DNA from: Clostridia bacterium
GTDB taxonomy: Bacteria > Bacillota > Clostridia > TANB77 > CAG-465
DNA length: 64,000 nucleotides
Assembly: GCA_045536565.1 (NCBI GenBank)
Contig: JAZSNU010000011.1
Span: 49,335 to 113,334, forward strand
Direction of reading: 5' to 3'
In this document: positions 9,565-26,718 of the stretch, piece after piece
Layout: every line of letters begins with the position of its first letter
Numbering within the stretch: position 1 is the stretch's first letter
Made by a program: the position numbers and the translations under genes
The notes under the pieces: generated by a model
What the model saw: the letters and a program-made list of their open reading frames with translations, nothing else
The model's database searches: none
What the model was told of the DNA's origin: nothing

Positions 9565-9798
9565 ATGATAAAAATGAAAAGAAGAAAAGATAACGAATAT
9601 GATGGGAATTTAAAAATAAATTGTAATGTATCTACTTGTGCTCATAACTGTGTAGAGGATAGTACTTGTTTATTAAAAGAAATAAAAGTGGCTAGAATAA
9701 AGGCAGATGAAAGTGGAGATGCAGATAAAGACACAGCATGTCATAGTTACAAATACTTAGGACATGAAAATTCTAGTTTGGGTAATTTTAGAATGTAA
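9565..9798 (+). CDS. Small Cys-rich DUF1540-like protein
   Basis: 77 aa with the C-x-V-x-x-C-x-H-N ... C pattern (CNVSTCAHNCVEDSTC) typical of Firmicute DUF1540 proteins. Confidence 0.45.
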   Translation: MIKMKRRKDNEYDGNLKINCNVSTCAHNCVEDSTCLLKEIKVARIKADESGDADKDTACHSYKYLGHENSSLGNFRM

Positions 9799-18173: not shown

Positions 18174-19784
18174 ATGATAGCAGCAAATAATGTAACATTA
18201 AGATTTGGAAAAAGAGTATTGTTTGAAGATGTAAATATTAAATTTACAGCAGGAAATTGTTATGGATTAATAGGTGCAAATGGTGCAGGAAAATCTACAT
18301 TTTTGAAAATATTATCAGGAGAAATAGAACCAAGTAATGGTGAAATAAATATAACTACTGGTGAGAGAATGTCAGTACTTAAACAAAACCATTATGAATA
18401 CGATGATTTTGATGTTCTTACCACTGTTATAATGGGAAATCAAAAGTTATATAGCGTAATGAAAGAAAGAGAAGCTATATACATGAAAGAAGATTTTTCA
18501 GATGAAGATGGAATAAGAGCAGGAGTATTAGAGGCGGAATTTGCAGAAATGAATGGCTGGGATGCAGAGTCAGATGCAGCGATACTTTTAAATGGTTTAG
18601 GAATAGAAACAGAATTGCATCAAAAATACATGAGAGAATTAACAGGTGCTGAAAAGGTAAAAGTACTTCTTGCACAGGCTTTGTTTGGAAACCCAGATAT
18701 ATTACTTCTAGATGAGCCAACAAACCATTTAGACATTGAGGCTATAAGATGGCTTGAAGAGTTTTTAATTAATTTTGAAAATACAGTTATAGTAGTATCT
18801 CACGATAGATATTTCTTGAATAAAGTATGTACTCATATAGCAGATATTGATTATGGAAAAATACAATTATTTGTTGGTAACTATGATTTCTGGTATGAAT
18901 CAAGTCAGTTAATACAAAGACAAATGAGAGAGGCAAACAAGAAAAAAGAAGATAAAATTAAAGAACTTCAAGAATTTATAGCAAGATTTAGTGCTAATGC
19001 TTCTAAATCTAAACAAGCAACTTCAAGAAAGAAAATGTTAGAAAAAATCGAACTAGATGATATAAAACCATCTAGTAGAAGATATCCATATATAGATTTT
19101 AAACCAGATAGAGAAATAGGAAATGATGTACTTGTTGTAAAAAATGTTTCTAAAACTATTGATGGTGAAAAAGTATTAGATAATGTAAGTTTTACACTTA
19201 CAAAAGATGATAAGGTAGCTTTTGTTGGGGATAATGTTATTGGAATAACAGCTTTGCTAGGTATTTTAGCCGGAGATATAGAGCCAGATTCGGGTGAGAT
19301 TAAGTATGGTCAAACAATTACTACATCATATTTCCCAAAAGATAATACTAAATATTTTAGTAATGAAGTGAGCCTTCTTGATTGGCTTAGAGAATATTCA
19401 AAAGAAAAAGATGACACATTTGTAAGAAGTTTCTTAGGTAGAATGCTATTTTCAGGTGAAGAAGGATTGAAGAAAACAAATGTAATATCGGGAGGAGAGA
19501 GAGTAAGATGTATGCTTGCTAAAATGATGTTATCAGGTGCAAATCTTCTTATTCTTGATCAACCAACAAACCATTTGGATATGGAATCTATTACTGCATT
19601 AAACAATGGAATGATATCATTTAAAGGTGTATTATTATTTGCATCATATGATCATCAATTTGTTCAAACAACAGCAAATAGAATTATAGAGGTAAAAAAG
19701 GACGGAATAGTAGATAGAAGAACTACATATGATGAATATTTAGATTATAGTGAGTCGGCGAGAAAATCAGTAAATGAAGTATAA
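18174..19784 (+). CDS. ABC-F family ATPase with two ABC cassettes and no TM domain
   Basis: Two Walker A sites (GANGAGKST, GDNVIGIT-type degenerate second) and two ABC signatures (LTGAEKVKV, ISGGERVRC), joined by a charged linker. The architecture is the EttA/Uup/YdiF type. Confidence 0.8.
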   Translation: MIAANNVTLRFGKRVLFEDVNIKFTAGNCYGLIGANGAGKSTFLKILSGEIEPSNGEINITTGERMSVLKQNHYEYDDFDVLTTVIMGNQKLYSVMKEREAIYMKEDFSDEDGIRAGVLEAEFAEMNGWDAESDAAILLNGLGIETELHQKYMRELTGAEKVKVLLAQALFGNPDILLLDEPTNHLDIEAIRWLEEFLINFENTVIVVSHDRYFLNKVCTHIADIDYGKIQLFVGNYDFWYESSQLIQRQMREANKKKEDKIKELQEFIARFSANASKSKQATSRKKMLEKIELDDIKPSSRRYPYIDFKPDREIGNDVLVVKNVSKTIDGEKVLDNVSFTLTKDDKVAFVGDNVIGITALLGILAGDIEPDSGEIKYGQTITTSYFPKDNTKYFSNEVSLLDWLREYSKEKDDTFVRSFLGRMLFSGEEGLKKTNVISGGERVRCMLAKMMLSGANLLILDQPTNHLDMESITALNNGMISFKGVLLFASYDHQFVQTTANRIIEVKKDGIVDRRTTYDEYLDYSESARKSVNEV

Positions 19785-19883: not shown

Positions 19884-20906
19884 ATGGATATAATTGTACA
19901 AAAATATGGTGGTACATCGGTTGCAGATAAAGAAAAATTGGAACAAGTTTGTAATAAAATAATAAATACATATAACAAGGGGATAGGTGTAGTGGTTGTT
20001 GTATCAGCACAGGGAAAGACAACTGATAATTTAATATCCAAAGCAAAAGAATATACACAAGAAACATATGAAAGGGAAATGGATTTACTTTTATCTACTG
20101 GTGAAATTCAAACAGTAGCACTTTTATCCATGATGTTAAAAGATAAGGGATATAATGTAATGTCAATGACAGGTGAACAAGCAGGTATAATTACAAATGG
20201 TGATTATGGAAGTGCAAAAATAGTAAAAATTATAAAAGAAAATATAGAAAAATATGTTTATGATGGAAACATTGTGGTAGTTGCAGGTTTTCAAGGTGTA
20301 GATAAATTTGGAAATATTAATACATTAGGTAGAGGTGGAAGTGATTTATCTGCTGTTGCAATTAGTGTAGCACTTGGTGCAAAAGAATGTCAAATTTATA
20401 CAGATGTAGATGGCATATATACGGCAGACCCAAGAATTGTAAAAAATGCAAAATTGTTAAAGTCATTATCGTATGAAGAAATATTAGAGGCGGCAACAGC
20501 AGGAGCAAAAGTATTACATAATAGGTCGGTTGGTGTTGGGCGTATATATGATATGCCAATTAGGGTAAAAAATACTTGTAATGAAACAAGGGGTACAGAA
20601 GTTATTAATATAAAATATGATGATAAAGGTGAAATTTTAGAAAATTATGGTGCAAAGATAATTACTAAAAATGATGATGTATCTAAAATAACAATAGTAG
20701 GTGATAGTCTAATTTCTTATCCAGAACATTTTAATAAGATATTTACATTAGCAGCAGATAATAAAATACAATTAATTATGATATCATTTAGTGAAACAGC
20801 TATTAATATTATAGTAAAAAAAGATGTAGCTGAAAGATTTACTAATATATTGCATGATGAGATAATTGATGGAAGAGCAAAAGATAATAATATAGATGAA
20901 AATTGA
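19884..20906 (+). CDS. Aspartate kinase (short form, ~340 aa)
   Basis: I set the start at the ATG at 19884, preceded by GGAGG. KYGGTSVADKEK...VVVVVSAQGKTTDNLI is the aspartokinase N-terminal nucleotide-binding signature. The C-terminal region is ACT-like. Confidence 0.65.
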   Translation: MDIIVQKYGGTSVADKEKLEQVCNKIINTYNKGIGVVVVVSAQGKTTDNLISKAKEYTQETYEREMDLLLSTGEIQTVALLSMMLKDKGYNVMSMTGEQAGIITNGDYGSAKIVKIIKENIEKYVYDGNIVVVAGFQGVDKFGNINTLGRGGSDLSAVAISVALGAKECQIYTDVDGIYTADPRIVKNAKLLKSLSYEEILEAATAGAKVLHNRSVGVGRIYDMPIRVKNTCNETRGTEVINIKYDDKGEILENYGAKIITKNDDVSKITIVGDSLISYPEHFNKIFTLAADNKIQLIMISFSETAINIIVKKDVAERFTNILHDEIIDGRAKDNNIDEN

Positions 20907-20949
20907 TATTAAATGTTTAGAGCGTTAAATCAATATAAAATAGTGTGTA

Positions 20950-20990
20950 AAATGATGTGAAATAAGTATACTTCACATCATTTGCTTATT
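20950..20990 (+). terminator. Terminator after the aspartokinase gene
   Basis: aaatgatgtgaa...ttcacatcattt 12-bp inverted repeat. Confidence 0.5.
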
Positions 20991-21024
20991 AATAATATGT
21001 GAAAGATTGCTTGTTTGGAAAAAA

Positions 21025-21054
21025 TTGACAAAGTTCCCCTTTGTGTTGTATAAT
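21025..21054 (+). promoter_or_regulatory. SigA-type promoter for the rSAM-precursor operon
   Basis: TTGACA at 21025-30, 18-nt spacer, TATAAT at 21049-54. Confidence 0.5.
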
Positions 21055-21111
21055 ATTTCTATCAATAAATTTGCATAATTATTTAATAATATTATGAAAG
21101 GGGAATTTACT

Positions 21112-22443
21112 ATGCAATTATCAAAGTTTTTTCACGCGATACCTATAAACAATGAAATCTATGCTCTATATAACTCTTTGTTAATGGATATTATTTTTGT
21201 TAACAAAGAAGAATATACGGATATAGTGTTACTTAGATCCGCGGATATAGATACATTAAAAGAATATGGTATATATGTAGAAGATGAATCTAGGGACGAA
21301 GATGCACTTCTAGTTATGCAAGAGGAATATGAAAAACTTAATCGGAAAATTGAAATAATGTATTTTATTGTTTCTACTGGGTGTAATCTTAAATGTAAGT
21401 ATTGTTTTGAGGAAGAAAGTAAGCATAATAATCATAGTGAGATTAATATGAGTTATGAAATCGCTATGACAGCTGCTAAAAAGTATGTTGAATATTTGGA
21501 AAGGCATGATATTGAAAAACCACAGGTTATATTTTATGGTGGGGAGCCATTAGTAAATTGGGATATTGTAAAAAGTGTTATAAATTACATATCTTCATGT
21601 AATTCTAAGGTTAAATTTAATATTGTTACTAACGGAACATTGATTGATGATGAAAAAGCTAAATACATTTCTGAACATGATGTAGAAGTTGGTATTTCGC
21701 TCGATGGCCCTAAATGTATTAATGATTATAACAGGATATTTAGAGTTGAAAATAATAGTGTTTATGATACTGTTATGAAGAAAATAGATATACTAAAAAA
21801 TTACAAATGCAAATATGGTTTATCAATTACAATATCTCAAGCATTAATTGATTCTAAAGACAAGGTTTTAGAGTGGTTAAAGACATCAGGTCTTCAGAGT
21901 GTTTTTTATAATTTATATCATTATGGAGAGGTTTCGGATACTTGGGAAGATTTTTATAATGAAATGAGTAATTATCTAATAGAGTCATATAATAATCTTT
22001 CAACTATTGGAATTGCTGATGGTAGACTTAATAGAAAAATCGATAGTTTATTGGACAACAAAATAAAATTCTCTGATTGTGCTGCTGTTGGTGTGAATCA
22101 ATTGACAATAAAGCCAAATGGTGATGTTATAGTTTGTCATGGATATGTAAAAACAGACAAGTATGTTTTAGGAAATATTAAAGACAAAGCTATTGAAGAA
22201 CTAGCATATTCTGAAGGTACAAATATCTGGAAAAGCCTGGCTCCAATATATAATGAAGAATGCTTGAAATGTGATTCATTATATATATGCGGTGGTGGCT
22301 GTTCTATGCAATCGGAAGCTTTATTTGGAGGAGTGCAAAATATCGACAGAGCTTTTTGTATTCATTCTAAAAAAAGTTTGTATTGGTTGCTTGAAAGGCT
22401 GTATGAAGCCTCTATAGAACAAATAAATAAGAAAGGAGAATAA
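21112..22443 (+). CDS. Radical SAM / SPASM-domain peptide-modifying enzyme (sactisynthase/ranthipeptide-maturase-like) with an N-terminal RRE-like domain
   Basis: Probable start is the ATG at 21112 (AAAGGGGA RBS); the ORF-track start is 21094. It has CNLKCKYC (CxxxCxxC) about 95 aa from the N-terminus, and two C-terminal auxiliary-cluster motifs CAAVG...VCHGY and CLKCDSLYICGGGC (SPASM). The ~90-aa leader-binding-like N-terminal extension precedes the rSAM core. Confidence 0.8.
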   Translation: MQLSKFFHAIPINNEIYALYNSLLMDIIFVNKEEYTDIVLLRSADIDTLKEYGIYVEDESRDEDALLVMQEEYEKLNRKIEIMYFIVSTGCNLKCKYCFEEESKHNNHSEINMSYEIAMTAAKKYVEYLERHDIEKPQVIFYGGEPLVNWDIVKSVINYISSCNSKVKFNIVTNGTLIDDEKAKYISEHDVEVGISLDGPKCINDYNRIFRVENNSVYDTVMKKIDILKNYKCKYGLSITISQALIDSKDKVLEWLKTSGLQSVFYNLYHYGEVSDTWEDFYNEMSNYLIESYNNLSTIGIADGRLNRKIDSLLDNKIKFSDCAAVGVNQLTIKPNGDVIVCHGYVKTDKYVLGNIKDKAIEELAYSEGTNIWKSLAPIYNEECLKCDSLYICGGGCSMQSEALFGGVQNIDRAFCIHSKKSLYWLLERLYEASIEQINKKGE

Positions 22444-22448
22444 GCAAC

Positions 22449-22616
22449 ATGTTGAAGTCTTCGAAGAAATCCTTGAAAAAGGTACTTCCAAAAGAAGCAA
22501 AAACATTCGCATCTACATGCGCATGCGGAATTTGCAGTGGTGGAAGTGGAAACTGCAAAGGTTGCCAGGATAAAAATGTAGACACGAAAACTGTCAAACA
22601 GATTTATTCTAAGTAA
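22449..22616 (+). CDS. 55-aa Cys-rich RiPP precursor peptide (absent from the ORF track because it is under 60 aa)
   Basis: The ATG lies 6 nt after the rSAM stop with GGAG upstream. It translates as MLKSSKKSLKKVLPKEAKTFASTCACGICSGGSGNCKGCQDKNVDTKTVKQIYSK, a Lys-rich leader followed by five Cys within an 18-residue Gly/Ser-rich core. The local GC is higher than the flanks. Confidence 0.7.
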   Translation: MLKSSKKSLKKVLPKEAKTFASTCACGICSGGSGNCKGCQDKNVDTKTVKQIYSK

Positions 22617-22620
22617 CCTA

Positions 22621-22665
22621 AAAAATGTACTAGGTAAGTGATAGTTCACTTACCTAGTATTTTTA
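22621..22665. terminator. Bidirectional terminator after the precursor peptide
   Basis: actaggtaagtga/tcacttacctagt 13-bp perfect inverted repeat flanked by A5 and T5. It overlaps the last codons of the convergent gene. Confidence 0.65.
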
Positions 22666-23195
22666 CACCAATTTTGAAATTCAATAGAACTTATATGATA
22701 AGAGGGTTTGATATATTTATTACATATATAAAACTCATCTGACAAGACTTCATTAAATGTATTTTTTATATATTCTTTAAAGTAAAATGATATAGTATTT
22801 ATCGCATCAATTTCAGAGTTGTATTCAAATATTCCGTTTTCATTATTAGAAGAGTTATCTTCTATATTGTACCATTTGCCATTTAATGAATATAATATAA
22901 ATGTATGGGTTTGATGTATATCTAAATCATCGTTTTTATATTCTAGATAATATGTGTTATTTGGAATATTGTTTGAATTAAAATAATATCTATATAACTC
23001 TACAACATCCCAACACCATGCACATTTATTTTTTAAAGTATCGTGTGGAGATTGAAGTATATATAATTTATCAATATCTACATGTTCAAAATCATTGGGA
23101 TAATACTTATTGCCAAAAGTATCTACAAATCCATATTTAATTTCTTGTTTAACATATTTATATAATTCAGAAGGGTTCATTTCTAAAAAATTCAT
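22650..23195 (-). CDS. Hypothetical Cys/His protein (181 aa), a possible papain-like or transglutaminase-like peptidase
   Basis: I set the start at the ATG at 23195, preceded by GGTGAT. It has NKCAWCWD (a candidate nucleophile Cys) and HQTHTF about 45 residues later. The fold assignment is an inference only. Confidence 0.4.
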   Translation of the reverse strand: MNFLEMNPSELYKYVKQEIKYGFVDTFGNKYYPNDFEHVDIDKLYILQSPHDTLKNKCAWCWDVVELYRYYFNSNNIPNNTYYLEYKNDDLDIHQTHTFILYSLNGKWYNIEDNSSNNENGIFEYNSEIDAINTISFYFKEYIKNTFNEVLSDEFYICNKYIKPSYHISSIEFQNWCKNTR

Positions 23196-23475
23196 TATAA
23201 TCACCAAGCAAATAATAGCATAATATTTAGAAAAATTCAAGTTTTGTATGAGTTAAACAATATTGATTATCCTCTCGCATTATGATATATTACAGTTATG
23301 GAGAGTTAGTTTATGAATAGTAAATTTGATGAATATTATTCTGCTTTTTTGGATATAGATAATGCAGTTAAAATAAATAACATATGGTATATTCGGAACA
23401 GACAATAGAGATATTCCCTTAAATAAAGAGTTCTTTTATCCAGTTATATTAACAAAATATAATGGGAAAATATAT

Positions 23476-24063
23476 TTGTCTGTTTCTAATAAATACTATG
23501 ATGTTATATTAAACACTATAAAAGATATTGATTTTACATTGCTTAGTAACAATGAAATTATTTCTATATTCCAAAATATATTTTCAAACATGATAGATAA
23601 TTTTGAAGTAAAAGAAATGTATAGAATGTGTAAAGATACAATAATAAGTATATTAGATAGTAAGGCCGTACTTTTAAATAATGATACAAAACAGTATTTT
23701 ATGAATACTGGAAATAGAGCAAGTGATGTTAGTTTTAAAGAAAAGAAATGGGAACAGCTTAAATATATATTAGATAGTGAAATGATATATATTGTTCCAA
23801 GTGATAATAAGATTTCATCAATTGCATTTACATCAGATATTTATTATAGAGGGGCTAATATTGTTGTAAATACTAATGAAAAATATAGAAGAAAAGGGTA
23901 TGGTAAGATGGCAGTAGCAGCTCTTACAAATTCAATATTGGAAAAGAAGTTATTACCTATATATTTTGTAAATGTAAATAATGAGTCATCTATAAATCTT
24001 GCAAAATCATTAGGATATAAAAGTATGGCTTTGGAAATAGTTTTATGCGTAAAAAATAGATGA
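23476..24063 (+). CDS. GNAT-family N-acetyltransferase
   Basis: C-terminal motif A region RRKGYGKMAVAAL plus a downstream beta-strand, the typical GNAT core. Confidence 0.55.
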   Translation: MSVSNKYYDVILNTIKDIDFTLLSNNEIISIFQNIFSNMIDNFEVKEMYRMCKDTIISILDSKAVLLNNDTKQYFMNTGNRASDVSFKEKKWEQLKYILDSEMIYIVPSDNKISSIAFTSDIYYRGANIVVNTNEKYRRKGYGKMAVAALTNSILEKKLLPIYFVNVNNESSINLAKSLGYKSMALEIVLCVKNR

Positions 24064-26238: not shown

Positions 26239-26718
26239 ATGGAGTTAAAGGAAGAAACGGTAACTTTTTTTACATTTATAATAGTGGGAATAATTATTGG
26301 TATAGTATTTGATTTTTTTAGAGCGTTAAGGAGAGTAAAAAAATATAACGAAAAATATATATGTGTTCAAGACATATTGTTTTTTATAATAATAAGTATA
26401 GTTTTGATGAGTACTTTAATATATAAATTAGAGTATAGTTTAAGACTATATTTATTTTTCTCTCTGTTTTTGGGAATAGTAATATATATTTCTACGATAA
26501 GTTCATATGTAATGAAGATATATATATCGTTTATAAAAATATTTAGTAGTATAATTTGTTTTGTATTAATGCCAATTAATATGTATAAACAATGTTTTAT
26601 GACAATATATAACTTTTTAGTAAAAAAATCAAAAAAATGTTGCAATAAATTTCATAATATGATATCTTATTTGTATAAACAGTATAAATATAAATTACAT
26701 AAGATAAAAATAAAATAA
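26239..26718 (+). CDS. yabQ: Spore cortex biosynthesis protein YabQ
   Basis: It has the DFFRALRR motif after the first TM helix and lies immediately downstream of yabP, as in Bacillus. Confidence 0.7.
   Translation: MELKEETVTFFTFIIVGIIIGIVFDFFRALRRVKKYNEKYICVQDILFFIIISIVLMSTLIYKLEYSLRLYLFFSLFLGIVIYISTISSYVMKIYISFIKIFSSIICFVLMPINMYKQCFMTIYNFLVKKSKKCCNKFHNMISYLYKQYKYKLHKIKIK

Follow-up and report, generated by a model that had tools for sequence, protein, structure and literature searches.

A two-gene radical SAM/SPASM cassette with an adjoining cysteine-rich peptide in a Clostridia bacterium: a candidate RiPP locus from a sister family of the FibroRumin system

The subject of this work is a small gene cassette in a stretch of 64,000 nucleotides from a Clostridia bacterium (GenBank assembly GCA_045536565.1, contig JAZSNU010000011.1, positions 49,335 to 113,334), which is referred to as the window and within which all unprefixed coordinates are given. 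The cassette encodes a radical S-adenosylmethionine (rSAM) enzyme with a SPASM domain, followed by a cysteine-rich peptide of 55 residues, and a first-pass annotation, made from the DNA letters without database searches, had proposed it as a candidate locus for a peptide that is made by ribosomes and then modified post-translationally (RiPP). Comparative analysis supports that proposal: judged by sequence, enzyme and peptide are a genuine, conserved and co-inherited RiPP enzyme-substrate pair, and the cassette is an uncharacterised sister family of the FibroRumin rSAM/SPASM RiPP system, not a member of the six-Cys-in-forty-five (SCIFF), PapB or anaerobic sulfatase-maturating enzyme (anSME) families. 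No curated enzyme or precursor model covers this family. The best explanation of the locus, which as a whole is given a probability of about 0.7, is that of a compact RiPP cassette in which one promoter drives a bicistronic message for an rSAM/SPASM maturase and then its 55-residue substrate, on which the enzyme would likely perform thioether chemistry.

The pairing of the two genes is apparent from their recurrence in other genomes. All loci were counted that encode an rSAM at least 38% identical to that of the window and that have readable flanks, the window included (window, L001, L162, L164, L166, L172, L002, L003, L008, L168, L169, L170, L081-L083, and L005-L007), and an adjoining Cys-rich open reading frame (ORF) of 51-81 codons was present in all 18. 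L004 seems to be an exception, but this contig stops where its near-identical twin L007 has the precursor. The precursor ORF is mostly located directly downstream of the rSAM gene and on the same strand, with a convergent orientation in L006 and a divergent, upstream position in L007, and the adjacency persists although the outer flanks differ among the loci. Precursors of this clade enter the core with [FYMV]-[AGS]-[SN]-x-C, contain a CxC(G)xC cluster and usually a Gly-rich stretch, and end in a conserved C-terminal tail (h-x-x-[IVLM]-Y-x-(K)), while Cys are their most conserved residues, ranging in number from 4 to 14.

The peptide of the window has the Lys-rich leader and the five-Cys core (C24, C26, C29, C36, and C39) that the first-pass annotation had read in it. 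Six homologues of the peptide were retrieved from databases, which have an invariant core, STC[AS]CGICSGGSGNCKGCQDKN, and a variable leader; the minimal core is defined as STCxCGxCSGGxGxC. Comparison with the closest relative, L001, identified 11 synonymous and no non-synonymous codon changes within the 22 codons of the core, and 7 synonymous and 8 non-synonymous changes in the leader, and by this measure the core is under purifying selection. A variant peptide with 75% identity (P0156) is found on 148 contigs. A profile of the precursor alignment matched only six proteins among 1.84 billion representatives, indicating mainly that such small ORFs are rarely called in databases. Low complexity probably explains the match of one of these six, P0169 (1657 residues, 21 matching stretches), which would then be a false positive. 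Besides, the precursor homologue P0168 (43 residues) is identical to the family through ..STCACGIC and then diverges (TFPLAYTQNNRCPY), which gives it the appearance of a frameshifted or decayed copy, and the 471-residue P0162 was set aside, being unrelated although it had been placed in the peptide cluster.

These data bear directly on the possibility that the rSAM protein is an anSME or another non-RiPP enzyme, next to which the 55-residue ORF occurs by chance, an outcome for which the first-pass annotation had asked to look. Models and structures of anSME are detectable relatives of the rSAM protein, but its scores of 136.6 bits with TIGR03942 and 106.2 bits with NF010321 fall far below the respective cut-offs of 349 and 441, and the anSME alignment begins only at residue 92, anSME being devoid of the N-terminal domain resembling a RiPP recognition element (RRE) that is seen in the model of the rSAM protein. 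Moreover, the ORF combines an invariant core, exclusively synonymous core changes, a strong Shine-Dalgarno (SD) site, and synteny in 18 out of 18 loci. The probability of such a chance arrangement is considered to be next to nil.

Placement of the enzyme among known maturases was based on curated hidden Markov models (HMMs), for which the FibroRumin maturase model TIGR04136 was the best NCBIfam match (237.4 bits versus a cut-off of 400), aligning over the full length of the rSAM protein including its N-terminal domain. Scores were lower for PapB (NF047865; 157.9 versus 340 bits), the nif11 maturase model (149 versus 519 bits), and the SCIFF maturase (TIGR03974; 134.7 versus 425 bits). Every NCBIfam equivalog cut-off exceeds the score of the rSAM protein, and the best full-length matches are all peptide maturases. 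The true FibroRumin loci L016 and L009 served as positive controls and scored 779 and 708 bits with TIGR04136, versus 217-252 bits for rSAM proteins of the window clade; their precursors scored 62.5 and 54.9 bits with the precursor model TIGR04135 (threshold 45), which had no match to the window peptide or three of its clade relatives even at E<=10. Likewise, a search of the window peptide against Pfam and NCBIfam, including the SCIFF precursor model TIGR03973, yielded no match at E<=10. In an identity matrix of 24 rSAM proteins, the window clade (34-71% identical internally) and the FibroRumin clade (48-80%) form separate blocks that are only 24-37% identical to each other.

The two systems also have features in common. 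FibroRumin, which has been defined bioinformatically (TIGR04136 with TIGR04135), likewise involves a Cys-rich substrate, in which a CxC-rich core stands between a leader and a conserved C-terminal tail. In addition, at six 'catalytic site proximity' positions defined in the SCIFF maturase CteB (F112, F152, T186, S210, H363, and Q364; PMC10288494), 18 of the 24 rSAM proteins, with a majority in either block, have the residues F-Y-V-S-H-G, suggesting that the two clades catalyse a common reaction. The systems differ in the organization of their precursors: the window has a single downstream precursor, whereas the FibroRumin-type loci (L009, L011, L013, L014, L016, L017, L018, and L020) have theirs upstream, mostly as two or three tandem copies (one each in L014, L017, and L020). 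The tail motif is [VI]KxxYxK in the window clade and an acidic ..(D/E)WE in FibroRumin.

A SCIFF affiliation had already been questioned in the first-pass annotation. The thermocellin maturase CteB (5WGG/5WHY) combines an RRE, an rSAM domain, and a seven-Cys SPASM domain, an architecture that the window enzyme would share by virtue of its modelled RRE-like domain, and both enzymes lack the additional auxiliary-cluster-I Cys of anSME. Both also belong to minimal two-gene cassettes without an exporter, and such a cassette in a Clostridia-like genome, together with CteB being the best sequence match in the PDB (E = 9e-31), would fit a divergent SCIFF system. However, the enzymes are only 20-21% identical, the SCIFF models match far below cut-off (TIGR03974) or not at all (TIGR03973) while the FibroRumin model scores much higher, and the window precursor lies downstream instead of upstream, has five Cys, and displays a different motif, which makes a divergent SCIFF system very improbable. 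PapB, the freyrasin maturase that forms Cys-to-side-chain thioethers, is the second-best HMM throughout the window clade (158-180 bits), but its model does not include the N-terminal ~90 residues (the alignment starts at rSAM residue 89), and the repeated Cys-x3-Asp motif is absent from the window precursor.

Homologues of the rSAM protein are numerous (1181 at E<=1e-3, with an identity of 37% or more for each of the best 120) and nearly all are unnamed proteins from metagenome assemblies, mostly of uncultured gut bacteria. The closest relatives of the cassette are labelled uncultured Clostridium or Clostridia bacterium. A metagenome-contig scan contributed only three clade members (L081-L083), and the closer relatives were obtained from Logan, ENA, and NCBI protein records.

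The domain composition of the enzyme is largely as the first-pass annotation had described it. Pfam matches to Radical_SAM (PF04055, 67.2 bits versus a gathering threshold of 29.5), Fer4_12 (44 bits), and SPASM (PF13186, 32.9 versus 21.5 bits) are all above gathering, and the CxxxCxxC motif is fully conserved (Table 1; residues are numbered according to the 449-residue ORF). Six of the seven SPASM Cys (C329, C348, C390, C393, C403, and C422) are invariant in the alignment of 41 homologues and C399 is retained in at least 90% of them, which points to a full SPASM domain with two auxiliary clusters and not to the twitch variant that had been considered. The homologues start with MxLSKFF, a GGGG-rich SD site precedes position 21112, and the closest homologue (P0007) has 443 residues, and on these grounds the true start of the rSAM protein is probably M7 (21112) and not the first codon of the longest ORF (21094). 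An AF2 model of the protein (overall pLDDT 90.7) places a separate domain in front of the TIM-barrel core, for which DSSP assigned strands to residues 13-17, 22-27, and 33-37 and helices to residues 38-45, 52-57, and 65-82, at pLDDT values of 92-95. The predicted beta3-alpha3 order corresponds to the topology of the PqqD-like RRE, in line with the RRE-like extension of ~90 residues proposed earlier. The solved structures nearest by fold are TigE (8vpo), CteB (5why/5wgg), anSME (4k37), and ChlB (TM-scores 0.64-0.72, 20-24% identity), of which TigE and CteB are RRE-bearing RiPP maturases (TM-scores 0.69-0.72, with 0.66-0.69 for CteB) that align with the model over its full length (448-474 columns). 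In sequence searches CteB ranked first, followed by anSME and TigE.

Concerning the reaction catalysed, thioether cross-linking is the most likely chemistry. In HMMER alignments the window enzyme and CteB lack the additional Cys found in anSME between the first and second SPASM Cys (here C329 and C348), exemplified by ...CGMNGTCTC... in anSME versus ...CAAVGVNQ... in the window enzyme. The three-Cys pattern in CteB reportedly leaves an open site on auxiliary cluster I to which a substrate Cys binds. Moreover, the window enzyme has three of its six proximity residues in common with CteB (F-F-T-S-H-Q), which forms thioethers, and resembles it in a fourth, and the same positions in anSME read F-Q-Q-S-D-F. 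The auxiliary cluster I pattern and the proximity residues lean towards CteB-type thioether chemistry. Comparable core motifs occur in the precursors StsA and BlaA, the partners of StsB and BlaB, which have closely spaced Cys followed by Gly-x-Gly, as in the window core (CxCxxCxGGxG), a likeness that is by motif only; in StsA (CxCxCx4GxGxG), sactionine links from Cys to the C-alpha of Gly form a hairpin (PMC10288494). StsB differs from the window enzyme in being MftC-like with a separate RRE protein. By analogy with StsA, Gly31, Gly32, and Gly34 would be the favoured acceptors in the window core, with Asn35, Asp41, Asn43, and Thr23 as the alternatives in case of ranthionine formation.

A mechanism may thus be envisaged in which the RRE-like domain of the model binds the Lys-rich leader, and possibly also the C-terminal [VI]-K-x-[IV]-Y-x-K tail. 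As in other members of the enzyme family, the CxxxCxxC cluster would reductively cleave SAM, and the resulting 5'-deoxyadenosyl radical would abstract a hydrogen from a core carbon that acts as the acceptor. The thiolate of a core Cys, probably held on an open auxiliary cluster I site as in CteB, would then form the C-S thioether, and this step could be repeated for four or five Cys with a loss of 2 Da each. The acceptors would be either C-alpha atoms of the Gly-x-Gly stretch (sactionines, as in StsA and BlaA) or side chains of Asn, Asp, Thr, or Lys (ranthionines). Finally, the product might be trimmed at its leader or tail by the protease-like protein encoded by the convergent gene, which resembles CPR-C4 and vasohibins, unless that protein protects the producer.

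The same enzyme-substrate pair could also carry out another reaction, such as C-C cross-linking, cyclopropanation, epimerisation, or Cys oxidation, with the Cys serving in disulfides or metal binding. The top fold match, TigE, is a cyclopropyl synthase, anSME, which converts Cys into formylglycine, is nearly as close, and with no characterised enzyme does the identity exceed 20-24%. This alternative is nevertheless regarded as unlikely, since Cys are the residues that the precursors conserve best across the clade, the auxiliary cluster I pattern and the proximity residues resemble those of CteB, and the next-best HMMs are those of the PapB and SCIFF thioether synthases.

Several observations weigh against the preferred reading of a thioether-forming RiPP cassette or limit its detail. 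Three of the nearest structures catalyse different reactions, i.e., formation of a cyclopropane (TigE), a thioether (CteB), or a formylglycine (anSME), and at 20-24% identity global similarity alone cannot fix the reaction. A Pfam search of the rSAM protein returned no PqqD match, leaving the RRE without HMM support, and the domain is consequently counted as modelled, not proven. In the precursors, the fifth Cys is absent from the relatives L164 and L166, and those of L169 (L169:5339-5584) and L170 (L170:5352-5549) contain 14 and 11 Cys, respectively, implying that the cross-link pattern cannot be uniform. The latter two loci have ~50%-identical rSAM proteins, and their precursors have Cys runs such as CNCTCNCSCTSPCNCNCGC and retain the ..IYK/..IYS tail. 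Furthermore, the loci examined share neither an exporter nor an immunity gene or dedicated peptidase throughout the clade, and literature searches found no paper on the window family or FibroRumin.

Table 1. Features of the cassette and its convergent neighbour (window coordinates)
Feature	Position	Strand	Basis or remark
Sigma-70-type promoter-like site, TTGACA-18 nt-TATAAT	21025..21054	+	Consensus scan; activity predicted only
Radical SAM/SPASM peptide maturase, 443 residues	21112..22443	+	Longest ORF from 21094 = 449 residues
RRE-like domain at the N-terminus (residues 13-82), three strands followed by three helices	21130..21339	+	AF2 model
CxxxCxxC (C97, C101, C104), motif of the SAM-binding [4Fe-4S] cluster	21382..21405	+	Invariant in 41 homologues
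SPASM region, C329-x13-G343-x4-C348 ... C390-x2-C393-x5-C399-x3-C403 ... C422	22078..22359	+	
Shine-Dalgarno site AGGAGA of the precursor	22434..22439	+	Within the 3' end of the rSAM gene; direct reading
Precursor, 55 residues, MLKSSKKSLKKVLPKEAKTFASTCACGICSGGSGNCKGCQDKNVDTKTVKQIYSK	22449..22616	+	Conserved core, SD site, adjacency to rSAM gene
Lys-rich leader, residues 1-21	22449..22511	+	Part of precursor
Cys/Gly-rich core, residues 22-43, STCACGICSGGSGNCKGCQDKN	22512..22577	+	Part of precursor
C-terminal tail, VDTKTVKQIYSK	22578..22613	+	Part of precursor
Bidirectional intrinsic-terminator-like hairpin	22628..22659	both	14-bp stem, 4-nt loop, T-runs on either strand
Transglutaminase-fold cysteine-protease-like protein, 181 residues, candidate accessory gene	22650..23195	-	Longest ORF to 23240

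The layout of the locus is consistent with a single transcription unit, as the first-pass annotation had proposed from its promoter and terminator. In a consensus scan of 2.9 kb (20700-23600) the promoter-like site was the sole 12/12 match and ranked first among 33 sites; it precedes the probable rSAM start by 58 nt. The SD site precedes the ATG of the precursor by 9 nt, and the rSAM stop codon (22441-22443) is separated from that ATG by 5 nt. The terminator-like hairpin covers the final 10 nt of the convergent gene, and two terminator-like sites were observed versus 0.4 expected. The elevated GC content that had been noticed over the peptide ORF amounts to 0.38, compared with 0.21-0.30 in the flanks and 0.267 in the whole window, and is due to the Cys and Gly codons. 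Within the window, the rSAM protein is the only one with CxxxCxxC, and the 55-residue ORF is the only credible Cys-dense small ORF. In agreement with the earlier remark that no ABC exporter is adjacent, the upstream ABC protein (18174-19784) is of the ABC-F type, with two ABC_tran domains and ABC_tran_Xtn, and its lack of membrane domains indicates that no exporter adjoins the cassette. A GNAT gene at 23476-24063 was ruled out as a member of the cassette, as no homologue was found beside the other cassettes of the window clade.

The convergent gene encodes a protein with the CAWCWD and HQTHTF motifs (the first-pass annotation had read CAWCWD and HQTH and suggested a papain-like peptidase), and it has a papain/transglutaminase fold with a conserved Cys-His-Asp triad, so that it is probably an active enzyme. 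NCBI's call (P0127) likewise has 181 residues and starts at 23195, corresponding to M16 of the longest ORF; a promoter-like site on the minus strand (23240-23212) would be positioned upstream of this start. The match to Pfam Transglut_core (PF01841) is below gathering (12.7-13 bits versus 23, E = 0.13-0.16), and a distant homologue, P0150, matches the transglutaminase-like domain PF04473 (DUF553) at 3.4e-6. The protein is 9-16% identical to the CPR-C4 protease (7PJO) and vasohibins (6J4S). Transglutaminase-fold proteases act as leader peptidases of lasso peptides (PMC10885120), and for the window protein no lasso-type domain match (transglutaminase-like, C96) is listed among its Pfam results.

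Whether this protein trims the leader or the tail of the peptide, or instead is an immunity-like gene or a mere neighbour, is evenly balanced. In all six independent contexts of the window clade (window, L001, L162, L164, L166, and L172) the cassette lies tail-to-tail with a protease homologue, despite outer flanks that are as different as a non-ribosomal peptide synthetase with a histidine kinase, AAA_21 with RloB, a 964-residue protein, AAA_14/DUF4143 with ABC exporters, and recombinases. This constancy, the triad, and the lasso-peptide precedent speak for a processing role. The opposite view, which carries about the same weight, is that the gene is not a leader peptidase but a self-protection gene capable of an orphan existence, or a conserved neighbour at which the cassette recombines. 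It is a separate, convergent transcription unit, no rSAM gene lies near the homologues in L161 (a tandem pair), L171, and L173, and sister clades that have kept precursors lack the gene. Moreover, L173 is an empty-site allele of L166, with flanks that are 99.5% identical: the 3.05 kb of L166:3508-6553, comprising a split AAA_14/DUF4143 gene, the rSAM gene, and the peptide gene, are replaced by 24 bp in L173 (1945-1968). The junction falls exactly at the 3' end of the intact protease gene, which differs only in its last four codons and the terminator hairpin, and no target-site duplication was seen at the junction. In the window clade the cassette never occurs without the protease gene whereas the latter often occurs without the cassette, an asymmetry that is expected of an orphan-capable immunity gene or a recombination anchor, and that a general peptidase exploited by the cassette would fit as well.

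Two further observations were made on the protease-like genes. The contig of L161 carries, besides the two tandem copies (L161:5303-6552), a third one (P0146); the 12.5 kb examined contain no rSAM gene, and the neighbouring genes belong to nucleotide metabolism (dCMP deaminase, deoxynucleoside kinase, and nucleoside deoxyribosyltransferase). In L166, two ABC_membrane plus ABC_tran half-transporter genes (L166:7131-10785) immediately precede the protease-like gene in the same orientation, seemingly as one operon; these half-transporters are also present in the empty-site allele L173 and are therefore probably not cassette-specific.

Other members of the clade have different partners. In gut metagenome-assembled genomes (MAGs) of Bacilli/Mollicutes (L002, L003, L008, and L168), a module (e.g., L168:3537-6552) of a GNAT gene that overlaps the rSAM start, the rSAM gene, a 59-60-residue precursor with six Cys, and a gene for a 313-328-residue protein is retained between different outer flanks. 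These GNAT genes gave no tblastn match to the one in the window. The 313-328-residue protein begins with MIIDTHSHVG and has weak similarity to Amidohydro_2 (E about 0.01). In bottromycin biosynthesis an amidohydrolase removes the follower peptide (PMC10885120), and by analogy this protein may be a second candidate processing enzyme; the module might thus offer another way of processing in place of the window clade's cysteine protease. In L004-L007, four loci at only ~40% identity to each other, the gene directly upstream of the rSAM gene encodes a methyltransferase of the RlmA-like kind, with Zn_ribbon_RlmA and methyltransferase domains (e.g., L007:5168-6007), and L005 has a second methyltransferase. 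The cassettes of L169 and L170 are situated between genes for a TraG-like ATPase (769-777 residues) and a Replic_Relax protein (311 residues), a setting that suggests a mobile element, and recombinases are found near the L172 cassette and an integrase fragment with AAA_21/RloB near that of L162.

This patchy distribution and the frequent mobile-region context speak, without being decisive, more for an accessory role like that of a bacteriocin than for a housekeeping role. It may also be supposed that the product stays inside the cell or serves in signalling, binding metals or having a redox or regulatory function, i.e., roles that have been discussed for SCIFF, and is not a secreted antimicrobial. 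Such a function would agree with the lack of a clade-wide exporter or immunity gene, the absence of a double-glycine motif from the leader, the housekeeping genes (UvrA, Lgt) that surround relatives in Bacilli/Mollicutes MAGs, and the resemblance of CxC-rich cores with up to 14 Cys to metal-binding peptides. It is held to be rather doubtful, as the cassette is present in one and absent from the other of two otherwise 99.5% identical loci (L166/L173) and the relatives described above reside in variable or mobile settings that are typical of accessory bacteriocin-like genes. A bolder and improbable proposal is that the family is a new RiPP class, in which the Cys/Gly core undergoes an undescribed modification that is guided at least in part by the C-terminal Tyr follower, and not by the leader only, the protease of the window's lineage is a C-terminal trimmer or an orphan-capable immunity factor, and the window family constitutes, with FibroRumin, a group widespread among uncultured Clostridia, Bacilli, and Mollicutes-like bacteria of the gut.

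RiPPs made by rSAM/SPASM enzymes have proved productive for finding new enzyme chemistry as well as narrow-spectrum antibiotics of the gut microbiome, and the clade described here comprises more than 120 rSAM clusters at a minimum of 37% identity in public metagenomes for which no curated model exists. The locus is a well-defined experimental target and not a surprise. With the enzyme-substrate pair, the minimal core, the tail motif, two clade-specific candidate processing hydrolases, and a natural presence/absence polymorphism at hand, the family can be tested directly by co-expression. Since most members of both clades share their proximity residues, chemistry established here would by extension assign a function to FibroRumin.

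An anti-phage defence function was ruled out, as PADLOC reported only generic similarity of the rSAM core (residues 85-243) to pVip at 58 bits. Elsewhere in the window, a Spore_YabQ homologue (26239-26718), together with the overall GC content of 26.7%, points to a very AT-rich spore-forming Firmicute. Finally, a 77-residue ORF at 9565-9798, which is unrelated to the cassette, contains four Cys and one His arranged as ..CNVSTCAHNCVEDSTC.. and presumably resembles the small DUF1540-type proteins.

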